Source: Nanobdellota archaeon (GTDB lineage Archaea > Nanobdellota > Nanobdellia > Pacearchaeales > GW2011-AR1). From it: a stretch of DNA of 64,000 nt. The position numbers were made by a program, and so were the translations under genes. The stretch covers positions 44,761 to 108,760 of the forward strand of contig JBBSYE010000007.1 in assembly GCA_038045385.1 (NCBI GenBank), given 5' to 3'. Positions 4,341 to 59,947 of this stretch are shown piece by piece. The number at the start of each line of letters is the position of its first letter. Position 1 is the stretch's first letter. Under the pieces are notes generated by a model. The model worked only from the letters and a program-made list of their open reading frames with translations. It was not told where the DNA came from and searched no databases.

Positions 4341-4514
4341 ATGGCAAAACCAAAAATGAGCTTCTACGATGTCAAATCTAAAAAGAAATTTGACTCAGAA
4401 AACTATCGTGTAGTGGAAAAAGCTGGACGATTTTTCGCAGTTACAAAATCGCTTGTTGGCACACACGAATGCTGGCGCGTATTAGGCAAGGATCAAGCTG
4501 CAAAGCTTAAGTAA
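4341..4514 (+). CDS. 57-aa CC1/Cren7-like small chromatin protein (absent from ORF track)
   Basis: MAKPKMSFYDVKSKKKFDSENYRVVEKAGRFFAVTKSLVGTHECWRVLGKDQAAKLK; GGAGG at 4331-4335; tttataata near 4300. Confidence 0.8.
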   Translation: MAKPKMSFYDVKSKKKFDSENYRVVEKAGRFFAVTKSLVGTHECWRVLGKDQAAKLK

Positions 4515-6299: not shown

Positions 6300-6797
6300 A
6301 TGGAAACAATATATGTTCAAAGGATTGGAGAAATAAAAAAGCAGAAAGATGAACTTGAGAAAAAACTCAAGGTTAGCTTAGAAATAAAGGGGAAACAGGT
6401 AACAATTAATGGGCCTTCTCTTGAAGAATATGAAGCCACGGTTATTCTAGAAGCAATCAGCTTTGGATTTTCAATTCAAGCCGCGCTAATCTTGAAAGAA
6501 GAAGATGCTATCTTTAGAAAGATAAATATAAAACATGTAACAAGAAGAAAAAATCTAGCTATCGTTAAAGCCCGTCTTATCGGCACAGAAGGAAAAACAA
6601 AACGCACACTTGAAAACCTTGCAGACTGCAAGATACTAATCAAAGACAACGAAATAGGCATAATTGGCCCAGCAGACGAAATTGAAGAAGCCACGACGGG
6701 AATTGAAATCTTAATCCGTGGCTCAAAACAATCTAATGTATATAATTATTTAGAAAAAATGAATAAAAAAAGAAAAGATAAAGTAAAAATTGCCTAA
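6300..6797 (+). CDS. KH-domain rRNA-processing protein (Dim2/Pno1-like)
   Basis: AISFGFS, KARLIGTEGKTKRTLE, GSKQSNVYNYLE. Confidence 0.9.
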   Translation: METIYVQRIGEIKKQKDELEKKLKVSLEIKGKQVTINGPSLEEYEATVILEAISFGFSIQAALILKEEDAIFRKINIKHVTRRKNLAIVKARLIGTEGKTKRTLENLADCKILIKDNEIGIIGPADEIEEATTGIEILIRGSKQSNVYNYLEKMNKKRKDKVKIA

Positions 6798-6800
6798 AAG

Positions 6801-6854
6801 TTATCTTTTTTTCTTTTTAGACGTTTTTTTCGTTGATTTTTTCTTTGCAGCCAT
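6801..6854 (-). CDS. 17-aa Lys-rich micropeptide MAAKKKSTKKTSKKKKR
   Basis: ATG..TAA in frame; GAGGTG just upstream; TTTAAATA about 45 nt upstream. Confidence 0.7.
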   Translation of the reverse strand: MAAKKKSTKKTSKKKKR

Positions 6855-6911
6855 CTTTGTACACCTCTTTTAGTTAACAAACAAAAGTAAAAAGATTATT
6901 TAAACATTACT

Positions 6912-6957
6912 AAAAAATAAATAAAAACAAAACACAGAAAAAAAGAAAAATAAAATA
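6912..6957 (-). terminator. Oligo-T tract, probable archaeal terminator after the 13-aa micro-ORF
   Basis: A-rich run on + strand (aaaaaataaataaaaacaaaacacagaaaaaaagaaaaa), i.e. T tracts on - strand. Confidence 0.5.
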
Positions 6958-6968
6958 CCGACGAGGAG

Positions 6969-7010
6969 TTATCTCTTCTTTTTCTTAGCCTTTTTTTTCT
7001 TTGCAGCCAT
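6969..7010 (-). CDS. 13-aa Lys-rich micropeptide MAAKKKKAKKKKR
   Basis: ATG..TAA in frame; GAGGTG just upstream; TTTAAATA at 7042-7049; T-rich tract downstream. Confidence 0.7.
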   Translation of the reverse strand: MAAKKKKAKKKKR

Positions 7011-7241
7011 CTCACACCTCAATAACCAATATATTCTCTTGTATTTAAAATGTTCGGAAAAATTGTTTTTGAAAATTATTTTTACGTTCCCCATTTATAG
7101 AACAAAAATATTTAGAAAGGAGGATTTTAAAGAGATAAATAAAAATTTTCTTTATAAACAGCAACCTTTAAATAACAATTTTATCCTCTTAATTCTATGT
7201 CCCCTTAGCTCAAAGCTAGAGCAACATTTATATAATTATGA

Positions 7242-8021
7242 ATGCAGATAATAAGTATGTATTTAAAATTAAATGAGGGTATTCTAAGAAAAATAGTCTC
7301 AAAAGCAATCGAAAATTCAGGAAATATTAGAAAATTACAAGATGAAACTGGAATATCAAAAAGTAGTCTTTCATTATATAAAAATGAAAAAAGAGCAATA
7401 AAAGATGAAAAATTGAAATTGCTTCTCAACATCTCGGGAATTAAAATAAAAGATGAGAATATCAAATATAAATTAGAAAATAACTGGAAACAAAAGAAAG
7501 GAGGAATAAACTGTGTTGAAAGTAAAAAAAAGAAAGGAACATTTGAAAATCAGCTAATTTTAGCAAGAATAAATAGTGCAAAAAAACTAAAAGAATGGCA
7601 CAGAAAAATGAAGACCGGACAGCCCGAAAAATACTATGAAATTCAGCATGCGAGATTTAAGAAAGCAGCAGGCAAAAAATTTAAAACTATTTTAGGAATC
7701 TTTGTAAGAAATAATTTAGAAAAAGATATTGCAAATAGGTTAGCTGAAATGAAAATTGACTATGAATATGAACCTATGATAAGAATAGAAGGCAAATGTT
7801 TTTTTCCTGATTTCTTAATAAACAAAAAAATAATCATTGAATGTACTATGTGGAAAGGTTATGATAAAGCAACAAAATTAAAAAATAAAATCAACCTATT
7901 AGAAAAACATTATAAGATATTTGTATTCGTTCCAAAACCTTTATATAAGTACTATCAGCAACTTAATAATTATCTAATATCTGATTTAGATAATATATGT
8001 CCCGGTAGCTCAGCTAGGTAG
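7242..8021 (+). CDS. HTH + PD-(D/E)XK endonuclease-like protein (DUF559/Vsr-like C-terminus); likely start 7257
   Basis: IRKLQDETGISKSSLSLY HTH; EKDIANRL..IDYEYEP..FFPDFLI..IIIEC. Confidence 0.7.
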   Translation: MQIISMYLKLNEGILRKIVSKAIENSGNIRKLQDETGISKSSLSLYKNEKRAIKDEKLKLLLNISGIKIKDENIKYKLENNWKQKKGGINCVESKKKKGTFENQLILARINSAKKLKEWHRKMKTGQPEKYYEIQHARFKKAAGKKFKTILGIFVRNNLEKDIANRLAEMKIDYEYEPMIRIEGKCFFPDFLINKKIIIECTMWKGYDKATKLKNKINLLEKHYKIFVFVPKPLYKYYQQLNNYLISDLDNICPGSSAR

Positions 8022-8087
8022 AGCATTCGGCTGTTACAATTTTTTGTAGAAACCGAAGGGTCGGAGGTTCGAGTCCTCTCCGGGACG
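7999..8087 (+). tRNA. tRNA-Asn(GTT) with 15-nt canonical intron (8037-8051)
   Basis: Acceptor GTCCCGG/CCGGGAC, anticodon stem TTCGG/CCGAA around CT-GTT-A, T arm GGTTCGAGTCC, BHB-like pairing CTGT/GTAG. Confidence 0.95.
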
Positions 8088-8130
8088 TTCTTCTCATAAG
8101 AATTAAAAACATACTTTTCTAACAATAAAT

Positions 8131-35177: not shown

Positions 35178-35292
35178 TGGCCCTACGAGGAATCGAACCT
35201 CGCTCACCCGGTCCCTTCAGTCTTTCTTTCCAATTTCTTTCCCAAAGAAAGCCTTCCGAAGCCGAGTATTCTATCCGATAAACTATAGGGCC
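35178..35292 (-). tRNA. tRNA-Arg(TCG) with 43-nt canonical intron (35213-35255)
   Basis: Acceptor GGCCCTA/TAGGGCC-A, anticodon stem CTCGG/CCGGG around CT-TCG-G, BHB helix CTTC/GAAG, T arm GGTTCGATTCC. Confidence 0.95.
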
Positions 35293-38765: not shown

Positions 38766-39500
38766 ATGATTGAAGAATTAAAGGAATTCGGCCTCTCAGA
38801 AAAAGAAGCTAAAGTCTACCTTGCAAGCCTTGAACTTGGAAACACAACAGCAAGCAACATAGCCATAAAGAGTAATCTTCCCAGAACACTAGTTTATGAC
38901 CTTTTAGAAAGACTTGTAAAACTCGGGCTTGTGTCCTATGCAATAAAATCAAATAAAAAATATTTCAGAACGAGTGCTCCAGAAGAACTATCACGAATAT
39001 TGGAAGAAAAACAAAAAGCAATATCTGAGATTATGCCTCAATTACAAAAAATGAACGAACTTCACGGCACACAAAGACCACAAATAGAGATATATGAAGG
39101 CAAAGAGGGCATGAAAACAGTTATGGATAATATTCTCCGTTCAAAAACAAAAGAATTCCTTGGATATGGGAGCTCTCGTTCATCTTATGAAATAATCCCC
39201 GCATTTATGGAAGAATGGCACAAAAGAAGAATAAAGCAGAAAACAATAATGAAAGTAATCTACAACAACACAAAACAAACAAGAGAAAAAATTAAGGATC
39301 TTCAGCCCTCACTTAAGTATTCTCATTTCAAAATAATGCCTATCGAACTTGAATCTCCAACTGCAACAATAATCTATGCCGATAAAGTTATTTTTCAATC
39401 ATGGACAAAAGAGCCATTTGCCGTGGTCATTGAAAGCAAAGAAATGGCTGAAAATCAGAAACGCTATTTTGAAAAGCTATGGAAAATCGCTAAGAAATAA
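38766..39500 (+). CDS. TrmB-family transcriptional regulator
   Basis: FGLSEKEAKVYLASLELG, PRTLVYDLLERLVKLGLVS, IYEGKEG. Confidence 0.92.
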   Translation: MIEELKEFGLSEKEAKVYLASLELGNTTASNIAIKSNLPRTLVYDLLERLVKLGLVSYAIKSNKKYFRTSAPEELSRILEEKQKAISEIMPQLQKMNELHGTQRPQIEIYEGKEGMKTVMDNILRSKTKEFLGYGSSRSSYEIIPAFMEEWHKRRIKQKTIMKVIYNNTKQTREKIKDLQPSLKYSHFKIMPIELESPTATIIYADKVIFQSWTKEPFAVVIESKEMAENQKRYFEKLWKIAKK

Positions 39501-58572: not shown

Positions 58573-59270
58573 CTCCCAAACATCCTATTAAGCATATTTA
58601 TTTTTCCAGGAAATTTAGCTCGCAAGTAAAACCCATACACAACGCCAACTAGCAAACCGCCAAAATGAGCACTATTTCCAACAGGTAAAGAAGCCGCAGC
58701 AGATAATGCCCACAATCCAAACATAAGAACAACCATCGCCATCCAGAGCCTCATAGGTATAACAAAGAATACCAATACCTTCATTCTAGGCATTAAAACC
58801 GCCAGCAAGCCACCAAGGCCGAATATGGCACCACTTGCTCCAACCGCGGAGATAGCAAGATTCCCAAAAAGAGCTTCAGTTGACGGCACGCCACTACCAA
58901 CAGCTGCAAGAAATACATAAAACAAACCAGCAATTATCCCAGCGCTAATGTAAAAAACAAGGTATCGCCTCTTTCCGATTAACCTTTCAACAAAACTCCC
59001 CAAGAATAATAAAGAAATCATATTCACAAGTAAATGCGTAAAATTAACATGCATGAACATACTTGTAAGAACAGTCCAAAAATATCCATCAAAAAACAAT
59101 AAAGGATTAAGCACAAGAAAACCACTCAAACGAGCAAAAAAATCAGGATTTCCAGAAACATTAAAAAAAACTCCCACAAGCGAAAATACCAAAAACACAA
59201 TAACATTAATAGCAATTATTGAAGCAGTAACTCCCACGCCAGATAGAACGCCTCTTTTTTGAAGACTCAT
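58569..59270 (-). CDS. Rhomboid intramembrane serine protease
   Basis: SMFMH..HLLVNM, GASGAIFG, AHFGG. Confidence 0.93.
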   Translation of the reverse strand: MSLQKRGVLSGVGVTASIIAINVIVFLVFSLVGVFFNVSGNPDFFARLSGFLVLNPLLFFDGYFWTVLTSMFMHVNFTHLLVNMISLLFLGSFVERLIGKRRYLVFYISAGIIAGLFYVFLAAVGSGVPSTEALFGNLAISAVGASGAIFGLGGLLAVLMPRMKVLVFFVIPMRLWMAMVVLMFGLWALSAAASLPVGNSAHFGGLLVGVVYGFYLRAKFPGKINMLNRMFGR

Positions 59271-59947
59271 TTCTTCTTTGCTTTCCCCTTTGACTTCTTA
59301 ACAGGCTTCTTTATGGTTTTTGCCAATAACAACTTCTTAGCTTTCATTTTTGCAGATCTCTCAGCTTTCGCCTTAACAGCAGCTCTTTTAGAAGCTCTTG
59401 CCCTCAAAGAAGCATTCTTCCCACTTACCTCTCCAAATTCAGAACTAACAATCTCCAACTGACTTCTAGCCTTGATAATTTGCCTTTCAAGATCAGCAAT
59501 TAATTCTGCCGGTTCTCTTAACTGCAAAACTTCTCCGCATTCTGGACAAGCAAAATTAGCCAATAATGCCTGCTCTTCATTCATCTCAACATCGCAATTC
59601 ACACAATGATAATGCCTCTCCGAAGTTCTAATTTTCAGCTGATTTTCAAGCTCCGCAATATTTTTTCCAATAGTTCTTTTTAGGCTTGCAAAAGATTTCT
59701 CAACATCAAGAGTCCAATAATAAGTATACCATCCGCCATTCTTTCTATCTTTCTTTCCTACAAAGCTAACAAGCCCCTCATCAGCAAGTTTGTAGAGTAT
59801 ATTTCTGGTCTGATTAATATTCAAACCAAGTTTTTTAGCGATAATAAATTCGTTAACATTCTTTTTTCCATAAAGAAGATCTATTATCGGACTTGCAGTT
59901 GGGTTAGCTATAACGCCCACAAGATCCTTCAAAAGCTTAATTTGCAT
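59267..59947 (-). CDS. tfe: Transcription factor E alpha with Lys/Ala-rich tail
   Basis: INQTRNILYKL, GWYTYYW, CVNC..FACPECG. Confidence 0.9.
   Translation of the reverse strand: MQIKLLKDLVGVIANPTASPIIDLLYGKKNVNEFIIAKKLGLNINQTRNILYKLADEGLVSFVGKKDRKNGGWYTYYWTLDVEKSFASLKRTIGKNIAELENQLKIRTSERHYHCVNCDVEMNEEQALLANFACPECGEVLQLREPAELIADLERQIIKARSQLEIVSSEFGEVSGKNASLRARASKRAAVKAKAERSAKMKAKKLLLAKTIKKPVKKSKGKAKKK

Follow-up and report, generated by a model that had tools for sequence, protein, structure and literature searches.

The tail of the eukaryotic linker histone H1 and the protamines are polycationic, are disordered or become helical upon binding, and neutralize charge and condense DNA. The H1-like proteins of bacteria bind, as a class, polyanions, i.e. 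DNA, polyphosphate or RNA: Hc2 of Chlamydia is reported to vary in size through lysine-rich pentamers (PMC2848022), AlgP of Pseudomonas to bind polyphosphate granules (PMC9239181), and PhaF of Pseudomonas to bind RNA (PMC12818456). The NAPs of archaea are described as diverse, as usually encoded by single-gene units, and as including small lysine-rich candidates (PMC7613761); one such candidate, from the Methanomassiliicoccales, has 74 aa, is rich in lysine, and was identified in the nucleoid fraction by proteomics (Hocher et al. 2022, PMC7613761). Among ribosomal proteins, eL41 is reported to have been long missed in archaeal annotation owing to its size (PMC7005279, PMC9932298), and alanine/lysine-rich extensions of ribosomal proteins are reported for Parcubacteria (PMC9297842).

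Here we describe two lysine-rich micro-genes, A and B, in the genome of a Nanobdellota archaeon. They are located in a window of 64,000 nucleotides, i.e. the whole stretch of DNA that was analysed, and are proposed, from their sequence, to be tandem duplicates, each of them equipped with a promoter, Shine-Dalgarno (SD) motif and terminator.

Anatomy of the tandem pair

Both micro-genes lie on the - strand, in the 444-nt gap between two genes of the + strand (Table 1). Micro-gene A comprises 13 codons plus stop (ATG at 7010, TAA at 6969) and micro-gene B 17 codons plus stop (ATG at 6854, TAA at 6801). Both open with ATG-GCT-GCA-AAG-AAA-AAA, and their products consist, after the Met, only of the residues K, A, R, S and T, with a net charge of about +9 to +11. 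The two ORFs are present as the initial annotation had described them, including the TATA elements, GAGGTG motifs, shared start and oligo-T tract.

Table 1. Features of the micro-gene locus, with positions in the window
Feature	Position	Strand	Basis
Predicted promoter of micro-gene A: BRE-like CCGAA (7057-7053) and TATA box TTTTAAATA (7050-7042), including the element TTTAAATA (7049-7042)	7042..7057	-	Sequence reading
SD motif GAGGTG of micro-gene A, 4 nt 5' of the ATG	7015..7020	-	Sequence; kept in G007
CDS of micro-gene A, MAAKKKKAKKKKR	6969..7010	-	ORF reading and relatives
Oligo-T tract 3' of gene A, between units A and B; archaeal terminator type, presumed terminator	6912..6956	-	Sequence
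TATA box TTTAAATA of micro-gene B, starting 50 nt before the ATG	6897..6904	-	Sequence; G007 counterpart
SD motif GAGGTG of micro-gene B, 7 nt 5' of the ATG	6862..6867	-	Sequence
CDS of micro-gene B, MAAKKKSTKKTSKKKKR	6801..6854	-	ORF reading and relatives
T-rich tract 3' of gene B, reaching into the 3' end of the convergent Dim2-like gene	6755..6800	-	Sequence
Flank: Dim2/PNO1-like gene with KH domain, convergent with gene B	6300..6797	+	Pfam KH_KRR1_2nd and KH_PNO1_2nd
Flank: 259-aa ORF, divergent from gene A, no family	7242..8021	+	ORF list; Pfam/NCBIfam

The promoter of micro-gene A is predicted by the archaeal BRE/TATA consensus. Archaeal TATA boxes are located about 25 nt ahead of the transcription start, and the distance from the TATA start to the ATG is 39 nt in micro-gene A and 50 nt in micro-gene B, and clusters at 48-52 nt among the 43 TATA-bearing copies of the family described below; 5' leaders of roughly 10-22 nt would therefore be expected. 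Both genes thus have the layout of a generic archaeal SD-led unit, i.e. a TATA box, an SD motif 4-10 nt before the ATG, an open frame and an oligo-T tract. The stop of gene B is separated from that of the convergent Dim2-like gene by 3 nt, and the 259-aa ORF matched no Pfam or NCBIfam family. If translated, A and B would rank with the smallest conserved genes that have a promoter, ribosome-binding site and terminator of their own.

An SD motif of this strength is unusual in this genome, as had been claimed. A strong 5-mer SD precedes 31 of the 601 ORFs of at least 150 aa (6 in a control window), and a TATA-like box is found 18-40 nt before the ATG in 215 of them (control, 51); the genome is mostly leaderless, as follows from the few strong SD motifs and the many TATA boxes close to the ATG. 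The promoter motif TCCGA..TATA, considered as a possible mark of highly expressed genes, has only two sites in the whole genome. The 18-mer ATGGCTGCAAAGAAAAAA, which is shared by the two units, occurs twice in the window (0.01 expected from shuffles) and is absent elsewhere in the 783-kb genome. A search with a pattern of fixed spacer between SD and ORF gave 0 matches, since the SD-to-ATG spacers differ (4 versus 7 nt). Genome-wide, 19 ATG ORFs of 8-45 aa have a K+R content of at least 55%, and only A and B of these carry both an SD motif and a TATA box. ORFs with SD motif, TATA box and T-run number two in the real genome, compared to a mean of 0.05 in twenty genomes simulated with an order-3 Markov model.

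Conservation and distribution of oligo-lysine genes

The tandem pair is kept in synteny in the same-genus genome G007, from which A and B differ only by whole-codon indels and by mostly synonymous or K-to-R changes, and the islands of conservation between the two genomes coincide with promoter, SD motif and ORF. For gene A, the orthologue has one synonymous change and one whole-codon (3-nt) deletion; for gene B, it is 21 aa long and shows a 12-nt in-frame insertion, five synonymous changes, one T-to-A and one K-to-R change. The GAGGTG of gene A is conserved in G007, its counterpart in gene B is GGGGTG, and the sequence aligned to the TATA box of gene B is TTTATATA. That the spacer has diverged while the signals are kept, as proposed initially, is borne out on two scales: within the genome, A and B align only over a 33-nt block around their starts (82% identical), and between genomes the promoter block of gene A (7065-7040) is 85% identical to that of G007, compared to 43% in the spacer upstream. 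For a roughly 90%-identical relative (DNA contig, run X10), 0 changes are listed at 6961-7022, which covers gene A, and 18 substitutions and four indels at 7023-7150; on a contig of run X10, a 12-nt in-frame insertion is found at 6836, inside gene B. On a close relative's contig, no changes are listed at 7027-7062, over the promoter of gene A.

In two further genomes of the genus, MPKKKATKKKKKR and MPAKKKKHAKKKKR adjoin Dim2, both having a TATA box and an SD motif. With a broader SD-anchored pattern, five same-genus genomes gave seven matches, compared to six for the reversed control, and no family member; a full scan of 486 kb of genome G036 also revealed no oligo-lysine member. Homologues of the 259-aa flanking ORF adjoin Dim2 without a micro-ORF in G033 and G030, and with one in G382; in G004, both this ORF and the micro-genes are absent from the Dim2 locus. 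A mobile element was rejected as explanation, since the 259-aa neighbour adjoins Dim2 both with and without the micro-genes, and since no flanking inverted repeats were found beyond low-complexity A/T matches.

A search for the MAAKKK pattern in 401 genomes of the order gave 73 matches, compared to two for its reversed control. The family was defined by filtering these matches to ORFs of 9-33 aa with a K+R content of at least 50%, and comprises 49 members in 44 genomes; five genomes have two copies each. An SD-like motif is found at -16 to -3 in 47 of the 49 members (compared to 62 of the 601 long ORFs of the genome studied here), a TATA-like box in 43, a TAA stop in 46, and a run of at least five T within 50 nt past the stop in 47; seven of the 43 promoters, from several genera, have CCGAA/T ahead of the TATA box. 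Variant N-termini are also found (MPKKK, MPAKKK, MAKKK and a leaderless MKKK), for example a MAKKK form of 38 aa in G010 and a leaderless MKKK form of 22 aa in G004.

The pooled composition of the 49 members is 58% K, 21% A, 6.5% T, 4.6% R, 2.3% S and 1.5% V. The residues D, E, N, Q and I are absent, though a lysine codon can become a codon for any of them by a single substitution, whereas T and R, which are likewise one step away, are tolerated. The absence of D, E, N and Q alongside the tolerance of T and R shows selection on charge at the protein level, in addition to selection on the reading frame. In the syntenic slot that follows a class II aaRS gene, copies span 12-29 aa, and in the one that follows an M50 protease gene, 11-33 aa; it is argued from this variable length within one slot, together with the variable copy number, N-termini and mode of initiation, that the peptides would act through bulk charge rather than at a fitted site.

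The initial annotation had also pointed to the neighbouring genes, an argument that carries little weight across the family: a Dim2-like gene is the downstream convergent neighbour of only eight of the 49 members (counting both copies here), and genes for aaRS, M50 protease, Nre, HIT, Tyw1 or topoisomerase adjoin the others. In 33 members, both copies here among them, the downstream gene lies convergently on the opposite strand; in 16 it is on the same strand.

An SD-anchored scan of all prokaryote species detected the same kind of ORF at 65 bacterial and 17 archaeal loci, with lengths that run on to 90-100 aa. Some of these loci have 62-72% G+C, so that lysine codons are used there against composition. 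A 22-aa peptide of Eisenbacteria type is nearly invariant in 16 species-level genomes, and its copies share a conserved hairpin-like 3' sequence directly past the stop; some longer bacterial relatives have a V/A-K-K periodicity of four residues, with which an amphipathic helix could form. A member is present in at least one isolate of a bacterium in culture (locus L189). The bacterial and archaeal sets may have arisen by convergence and not belong to one family, and the occurrence in high-G+C bacteria suggests a general solution that has possibly evolved repeatedly.

The distribution bears on an alternative that we judge very improbable, namely that the RNA or the act of translation matters and the peptide is incidental, e.g. 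as a regulatory or antisense RNA against the 3' end of Dim2, a stalling sensor or a leader peptide. The predicted transcript of gene B must enter the 3' end of Dim2, convergent downstream neighbours prevail in the family as given above, lysine-codon runs slow ribosomes, and the Eisenbacteria-type copies have their hairpin-like sequence after the stop. However, the variation is synonymous (GCN, ACN, AAR) with the amino acids kept, the indels are whole-codon, and the exclusion of acidic and amide residues is a constraint on protein. Furthermore, the neighbours vary by genus, which leaves no constant antisense target, and the layout of an attenuator is missing, since a T-run follows directly in 47 of the 49 members and a same-strand downstream gene in only 16. 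The predicted transcripts fold no better than shuffled sequences (z of +0.74 and +0.72), and a search of Rfam 15 detected only two tRNAs in the window, the best local matches scoring 24.5 bits compared to a gathering score of 100. A structured RNA or known RNA family is ruled out by these folding and Rfam results, and an attenuator leader peptide was rejected because a co-oriented regulated gene and alternative RNA structures are both missing, and because the peptide sequence is kept.

Functionless chance ORFs in A-rich intergenic DNA are an explanation to which we give hardly any credence. At the 35% G+C of the genome, A-runs translate as lysine, and tiny ORFs are prone to over-interpretation, expression of A and B being predicted only. 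Set against this are the two full-signal ORFs where 0.05 are expected, the excess of MAAKKK matches over the reversed control within the order, the frame-keeping conservation across genera, and the same ORF type at loci whose composition disfavours lysine codons. On this evidence A and B are real genes rather than chance ORFs, with an anatomy that can be read directly and with transcription and translation that we infer. The earlier view of A and B as selected micro-genes, and not junk, has thereby passed the comparative test that it had named itself, i.e. frame-preserving homologues in related genomes.

None of the family ORFs is annotated. The minimum length of the family scan was 20 aa, above the 13 and 17 aa of the peptides in the window. 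Among the K-rich ORFs that the all-prokaryote scan had detected, 48 distinct ones (20-109 aa) gave no Pfam or NCBIfam match over cut-off, the best scores being those of HC2 (21.4 bits; cut-off 40) and NF038053 (19.7 bits; cut-off 80), and these only with ORFs of 90-100 aa. An exact look-up in a 15-billion-protein collection found 0 of 20 peptides of 22-52 aa (10 bacterial, 10 archaeal), i.e. standard gene callers are blind to such genes. For a 40-aa relative, a word-seeded homology search returned 676 candidates, none at E of 1e-3 or below, and for a 33-aa relative (P0001) a sequence search found no PDB chain at E of 10 or below. The ESM Atlas has unnamed clusters of 34-43 aa, the nearest named cluster being HC2 at low score. 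The motif is absent from roughly 8.4 million texts, among which no printed description was found, supplementary files being outside the search; small-ORF catalogues of the GMSC kind (minimum ORF 30 nt; PMC11364881) may list such ORFs in supplements.

Candidate functions

The function that we favour, tentatively but as a plausible one, is that of abundant, non-specific free polycations for DNA and RNA, i.e. of a miniature histone-H1-tail-like peptide. Each unit would be transcribed from its BRE/TATA promoter into a short leader with a strong SD motif, followed by 13 or 17 codons and an oligo-T terminator. The products, nearly pure lysine with A, T and S as spacers, would be free and abundant, and would bind polyanions, mainly DNA and also RNA, without sequence specificity; bound peptides would screen charge and compact or stabilize the nucleic acids. 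They would be the equivalent of a stand-alone K/A-rich tail of H1 or of the bacterial H1-like proteins, or a genetically encoded analogue of polyamines. For A and B we infer transcription, translation and high abundance as well as the binding partner and the physiological role.

Three functions had been suggested initially, and among these the H1-tail- or polyamine-like polycation fits best, on circumstantial grounds: the K/A/T/S composition without acidic residues, the two- to threefold length variation of syntenic orthologues, the drift of the longest relatives in the direction of HC2/H1-like profiles, and the failure to find known NAPs or spermidine synthase. The suggestion of a ribosome-associated peptide is weakened, since a genuine eL41 is encoded at another locus.

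With regard to NAPs, the genome, which is 89% complete, yielded neither Alba, HU nor spermidine synthase, and no histone match over cut-off. A 57-aa ORF in the genome gives a sub-threshold histone match, and another ORF of 57 aa (4341-4514), basic and beta-rich, has a weak likeness to Sac7d (Foldseek E of about 0.8, TM 0.43-0.45, pLDDT 69); given the degree of completeness and these two likenesses, the absence of known NAPs is uncertain. The TFE encoded in the same window carries a K/A-rich tail.

Several observations speak against a polycation. The family is patchy (MAAKKK type in 44 of 401 genomes), and general charge screening might be expected to occur more widely; the approximately 1.6 million DNA phosphates would demand very many copies of a +9 peptide; and the near-invariant Eisenbacteria-type peptide looks more like a fitted partner than like bulk charge.

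The near-invariance of this 22-aa peptide would suit a defined site, and is one point for a reading that we consider unlikely, i.e. tiny ribosome-bound proteins in a cavity or groove of the rRNA, analogous to eL41, bS22, bL37 or Thx, at another site. Stand-alone genes for minute, highly basic peptides are typically ribosomal, eL41 is a precedent for a gene missed by its size (PMC7005279, PMC9932298), the Parcubacteria have ribosomal proteins with alanine/lysine-rich extensions (PMC9297842), and strong promoters and SD motifs suggest high expression, as predicted here. The eL41 slot is, however, already taken. A genuine eL41 of 38 aa is encoded on contig C2 of this genome (- strand, from 38931), and an eL41 gene is also found in G004; residues 1-34 of the 38-aa protein match Thermococcus/Pyrococcus chains (6skf_Bk, E 5.6e-4; 6sw9_0, E 1.2e-3), and the identity of A or B with eL41 is ruled out by this separate gene. 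A search of the genome with PF05162 returned nothing at E of 10 or below, the same search being below cut-off in control archaea too. Syntenic orthologues of the micro-genes vary two- to threefold in length, have variable N-termini, occur in 0-2 copies and are apparently absent in close relatives, a variability that is unlike known ribosomal proteins. No ribosomal-protein gene is among the recurrent neighbour groups scanned, and the 33-aa relative has no match to a PDB chain.

Export of the peptides as antimicrobial or cell-penetrating agents, aimed by an episymbiont at its host or at competitors, is in our estimate very improbable. DPANN archaea are generally regarded as host-attached, short lysine-rich peptides are classic membrane-active agents, and the V/A-K-K periodicity of some longer bacterial relatives is compatible with an amphipathic helix. 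However, the 13- and 17-aa peptides have no signal peptide or hydrophobic face, no transporter, maturation or immunity gene is among the recurrent neighbour groups scanned, and the same kind of ORF is found in many phyla that we take to be free-living.

Returning to the preferred reading as free polycations, its extension to a general class is possible, though rather doubtful: a class of stand-alone oligo-lysine genes, 9-40 codons long and so far without annotation, that would exist in both domains and rank with the shortest conserved protein-coding genes known, encoding equivalents of polyamines or protamines that compact and stabilize DNA and RNA, serving as a main counter-ion of the nucleoid in ultra-small archaea like the present one, where known NAPs and spermidine synthase were not found, and tuned quickly in copy number and length by slippage at lysine codons. 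If true, a new and very simple part in the packaging and stabilizing of nucleic acids would be added for ultra-small cells with minimal genomes, and the principle of the H1-like tail would come to include a free peptide. The class lends itself to direct tests, as the peptides are cheap to synthesize and a cultured isolate is available (locus L189).

Comparison with described small basic proteins

Like the micro-genes, eL41 (eS32), bS22, bL37 and Thx belong with the shortest protein-coding genes known, and are extremely basic, encoded by stand-alone genes and easily left unannotated. The eL41 protein, whose site is the h27/h44/h45 pocket of the small subunit, has a conserved sequence with W and R and a fixed length, whereas the micro-peptides cannot be aligned to eL41, have a threefold range of length and are patchy in occurrence. 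Attenuator leader peptides share with the micro-genes that they are very short and rich in one amino acid, and that their own SD motif precedes and a terminator follows.

Protamines are rich in arginine, whereas the family has 4.6% R and 58% K; membership in the protamines was rejected for the 49 members on this ground, and the term 'protamine-like' used initially describes the wrong composition. The tail of eukaryotic linker histone H1 is K/A/S/T-rich like the micro-peptides, but forms part of a protein with a winged-helix globular domain. No sign of common descent with the H1 tail or the protamines is apparent.

The Methanomassiliicoccales protein, as far as it is described in the source, and the micro-peptides are small, basic and lysine-rich and belong to lineages in which the usual chromatin proteins have not been found; the micro-peptides are 5-6 times shorter than the 74-aa protein, and are known here from sequence alone.

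The bacterial H1-like proteins, i.e. Hc2 (PF07382), the Burkholderia-type NF038053, AlgP and PhaF, are of low complexity, with K and A and with T, S, P and V as spacers, like the micro-peptides. The 49 members are K/A-rich with small spacers and no acidic residues, and the length polymorphism of the H1-like proteins is also found, in the 3-nt and 12-nt in-frame indels relative to G007, the insertion in the X10 contig and the length ranges within the same slot. The binding of polyanions, a property of the bacterial class, is proposed for the micro-peptides. Unlike the H1-like proteins, the micro-peptides have a dedicated promoter and terminator and no profile match at cut-off; and where the H1-like proteins comprise 100-350 aa, some with a folded domain, the micro-peptides of 9-33 aa correspond to the 'tail' alone.

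Anatomy and conservation of the micro-gene pair

Two Lys-rich ORFs of 13 and 17 codons, micro-genes A and B, lie in tandem on the minus strand of a 444-nt gap separating two plus-strand genes (see table). The initial annotation of this locus (ORFs, GAGGTG motifs, TTTAAATA boxes, T tract and shared start) proved accurate in every checkable detail. The start of 18 nt is identical in A and B and absent from the rest of the 783-kb genome; beyond that, the two units can be aligned only over a block of about 33 nt around the starts (82% identity). A T-rich tract is found 3' of both ORFs.

Coordinates of the micro-gene pair and of other features (window positions unless a contig is given)
Feature	Position	Strand	Remark
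Micro-gene A	7010-6969	-	ORF MAAKKKKAKKKKR
Micro-gene B	6854-6801	-	ORF MAAKKKSTKKTSKKKKR
GAGGTG before A	7020-7015	-	4 nt 5' of ATG
GAGGTG before B	6867-6862	-	7 nt 5' of ATG
TTTAAATA box of A	7049-7042	-	
TTTAAATA box of B	6904-6897	-	
KH-domain Dim2/PNO1-like gene	6300-6797	+	flank
259-aa ORF	7242-8021	+	flank
57-aa basic ORF	4341-4514	+	
226-aa ORF	59267-59947	-	presumably transcription factor E (TFE)
tRNA gene, 91 nt	7998-8088	+	
tRNA gene, 115 nt	35178-35292	-	found by Rfam only, not by ARAGORN
eL41/eS32, 38 aa	contig C2, ATG at 38931	-	own genome, outside the window
eL41/eS32	contig C1, 70768	+	same-genus genome G004
57-aa ORF	contig C8, 26183-26356 (L270, 1483-1656)	+	own genome

The syntenic locus of a genome of the same genus (G007; flanking proteins 70-85% identical) keeps the tandem pair as MAAKKKKAKKKR and MAAKKKAMKKSAKKTSKKRKR, each with TATA box and Shine-Dalgarno (SD) motif. 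In a codon-by-codon comparison, gene A shows a single synonymous change and one deleted codon; in gene B, four codons are inserted and five changes are synonymous, alongside T-to-A and K-to-R. The promoter block of A is 85% identical and the spacer upstream of it 43%, which bears out the earlier observation that the spacer has diverged while ORFs and signals are kept. In DNA contigs of a closer relative (sequencing run X10), all 18 substitutions and 4 indels over positions 6961-7190 fall within 7023-7150, with no change in gene A or its SD; another contig of the run carries a 12-nt in-frame insertion inside gene B. Two more same-genus genomes encode MPKKKATKKKKKR and MPAKKKKHAKKKKR adjoining Dim2, with TATA box and SD. 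Frame-preserving homologues, which had been sought in related genomes, are thus present in G007 and in other genomes of the order.

The source genome (35% G+C) contains 19 ATG ORFs of 8-45 aa with at least 55% K+R, among which only A and B combine SD and TATA box; ORFs with SD, TATA box and T-run numbered two, against a mean of 0.05 in 20 order-3 Markov-simulated genomes. Among 601 ORFs of at least 150 aa, a 4-mer SD at -16 to -3 precedes 62 (control window, 36), a strong 5-mer SD 31 (control, 6), and a TATA-like box 18-40 nt 5' of the ATG 215 (control, 51). The latter spacing is a signature of leaderless mRNA, and the genome looks mostly leaderless, in agreement with the initial annotation, which had called a strong SD unusual here. 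The 3' end of the 16S rRNA (anti-SD) was not found in the assembly. A and B are very probably real genes; the function proposed below is an inference.

The flanking 259-aa ORF belongs to no family, and its 3' end overlaps a tRNA-Thr gene by about 24 nt. Its homologues adjoin Dim2 in three genomes (G033, G030, G382); from the Dim2 locus of G004 it is missing, together with the micro-genes. The two tRNA genes in the table are longer than usual and probably contain introns.

The family in the order and similar ORFs beyond it

The MAAKKK pattern gave 73 matches in 62 of 401 genomes of the order, versus 2 for the reversed control. All 73 sites were fetched, and 49 (44 genomes, five with two copies) were taken as the family, with ORFs of 9-33 aa and at least 50% K+R. 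An SD-like motif is present in 47/49, a TATA-like box in 43/49, a run of at least five T within 50 nt past the stop in 47/49, and a TAA stop in 46/49. The other 24 sites comprise a protein of 73-75 aa present three times, which we take to be eL43, long proteins with a Lys-rich N-terminus, two borderline ORFs (28 and 38 aa, 45-46% K+R) and a few chance ORFs. Four loci of order relatives (L025, L079, L081, L021) encode proteins of 110-297 aa that open with the same MAAKKK Lys-rich stretch, so the Lys-rich tail is also found fused to other proteins; in at least L025, this stretch is followed by a hydrophobic segment that probably spans the membrane.

Taken together, the 49 members consist of K 58%, A 21%, T 6.5%, M 6%, R 4.6%, S 2.3%, V 1.5% and traces of P, G and L; D, E, N, Q, I, H and aromatic residues are absent from all 49. 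A single base change turns a Lys codon into one for E, Q, N or I, yet none of these occurs, whereas the equally near T and R are tolerated, and Ala is the second commonest residue though two changes away. Selection at the protein level, for charge, would predict this composition, together with variation at synonymous sites and indels of whole codons. A functional RNA would predict none of them and is unlikely; the predicted transcripts of A and B fold no better than shuffled sequences (z +0.74 and +0.72), and no Rfam family came near threshold for these units. The selection suggested earlier thus appears to act on the peptide, judged by synonymous changes, whole-codon indels and excluded residues.

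Contigs of three genomes were also scanned without the N-terminal filter. That of another genus (G010, 511 kb) yielded a 38-aa MAKKK member with SD, TATA box and T-run, while in G004 (760 kb + 5.7 kb, 95% complete) the sole find was a leaderless MKKK ORF of 22 aa, its TATA box lying about 21 nt 5' of the ATG and a T-run 3'. No member was found in 486 kb of a genome of another family (G036), nor in five further same-genus genomes with a broader SD-anchored pattern. Members of the class are thus common, though patchily distributed, and they vary in start, length and copy number.

The GAGGTG-anchored search, proposed initially for DPANN genomes, was run prokaryote-wide (one genome per species; GAGGTG, 4-10 nt, MAAKKK) and gave at least 120 loci. 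Among the matches listed, 82 of 120 carry a Lys-rich ORF of at most 60 aa; by record titles, 17 are archaeal (Woese-, Pace-, Nano- and Aenigmatarchaeota, Bathyarchaeia) and 65 bacterial (Eisenbacteria, Verrucomicrobiota, Acidobacteriota, Nitrospirota, Chloroflexota and relatives, Gamma- and Deltaproteobacteria, Bdellovibrionales, many Patescibacteria, Omnitrophota, Fibrobacteres, Gemmatimonadota), grouped by ORF type, these low-complexity sequences being either one family or convergent. Many of the listed loci have 62-72% G+C, where Lys codons run against composition. A near-invariant 22-aa peptide is common to at least 16 species-level genomes, mostly Eisenbacteria (L111-L113, L137, L148, L164, L170, L174, L177, L181, L183, L186, L188, L203, L218, L222); it has one variable position and a K-to-R change in one copy, while its GCN and ACN codons vary synonymously. 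Directly past its stop lies a conserved GGACCTGGCACGTCC (4-bp stem, 7-nt loop) and, after it, a G+C-rich hairpin; the bacterial micro-gene may have here an element for its regulation or processing.

Neighbours, rejected identities and novelty

A leader peptide was rejected on the grounds that 33/49 members (A and B included) have their downstream neighbour on the other strand and that terminators follow directly 3'. A positional tie to translation genes was likewise rejected, since recurrent neighbours differ by lineage: a class II aaRS (12 of 49) or M50 protease (8) upstream, Dim2 as convergent neighbour (8), and HIT (7), Nre (7), Tyw1 (5) or topoisomerase I (4).

A Lys version of eL41 is out, since the source genome encodes a separate, genuine eL41, which matches solved Thermococcus and Pyrococcus chains (best E 5.6e-4, residues 1-34); its gene lacks an SD and is closely preceded by a TATA-like box. 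This protein escaped the Pfam eL41 search of the genome, and DPANN archaea may thus have more eL41 genes than are reported; two papers describe eL41 as poorly annotated in archaea (PMC7005279, PMC9932298).

A collection of 15 billion proteins contained none of the 20 relatives (22-52 aa) looked up, no curated family (Pfam, NCBIfam) matched relatives above cut-off, and the ESM Atlas returned unnamed clusters only, the nearest named one being HC2 at low score. The MAAKKK string was absent from the literature texts searched, and no description of such genes was found among the papers that the literature searches listed.

Putative function and chromatin context

Syntenic orthologues differ 2-3 fold in length (12-29 aa behind aaRS, 11-33 aa behind M50), copy number ranges from 0 to 2, and N-terminus and initiation mode vary; the sole strict rules are Lys-richness, small spacers and no negative charge. 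This points to a function that would depend on bulk positive charge and not on a fitted site. Among the functions proposed initially, an H1-tail-like polycation is therefore tentatively favoured: the micro-peptides may be free polycations that would screen charge and serve to compact or stabilise DNA, with RNA a probable further target. A peptide bound to the ribosome, at a site other than that of eL41, is possible but less likely. The polycation reading draws on the variation in length and copy number, on the drift towards H1-like proteins, on the known binding of such proteins, and on the source genome (89% complete), which yielded no histone above cut-off, nor any Alba, HU or spermidine synthase. 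Against it stand the patchy distribution of the class, the large number of peptide copies that would be needed, the near-invariance of the Eisenbacteria-type peptide, and two small ORFs of the source genome, possibly chromatin proteins that went unrecognised.

One of these, on contig C8 just after a 130-aa ORF that we take to be PIN-domain-like, is the sole source of a histone-like signal in this genome, below threshold (Pfam 16.9 bits versus a cut-off of 21.4; NCBIfam archaea_histone 14.3 versus 50). The other, the 57-aa basic ORF of the window, matches nothing by sequence in Pfam, NCBIfam or the PDB; modelled from its single sequence (pLDDT 69), it forms a beta structure of five strands whose best Foldseek rows are repeatedly Sac7d/Sso7d, at weak scores (E about 0.8-2, TM 0.43-0.45), and an SH3-like chromatin protein is possible, as a lead.

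The C-terminal K/A-rich tail (about 45 residues) of the putative TFE resembles the micro-peptides in composition, but is joined to a presumed DNA-binding factor. Bacterial histone H1-like proteins are approached by the longest ORFs, with members of 90-100 aa giving sub-threshold HC2/H1-like matches; H1-like proteins bind DNA, polyphosphate or RNA, according to three papers (PMC2848022, PMC9239181, PMC12818456). By this analogy, the micro-peptides would rate as H1-like polycationic proteins reduced to the free tail.
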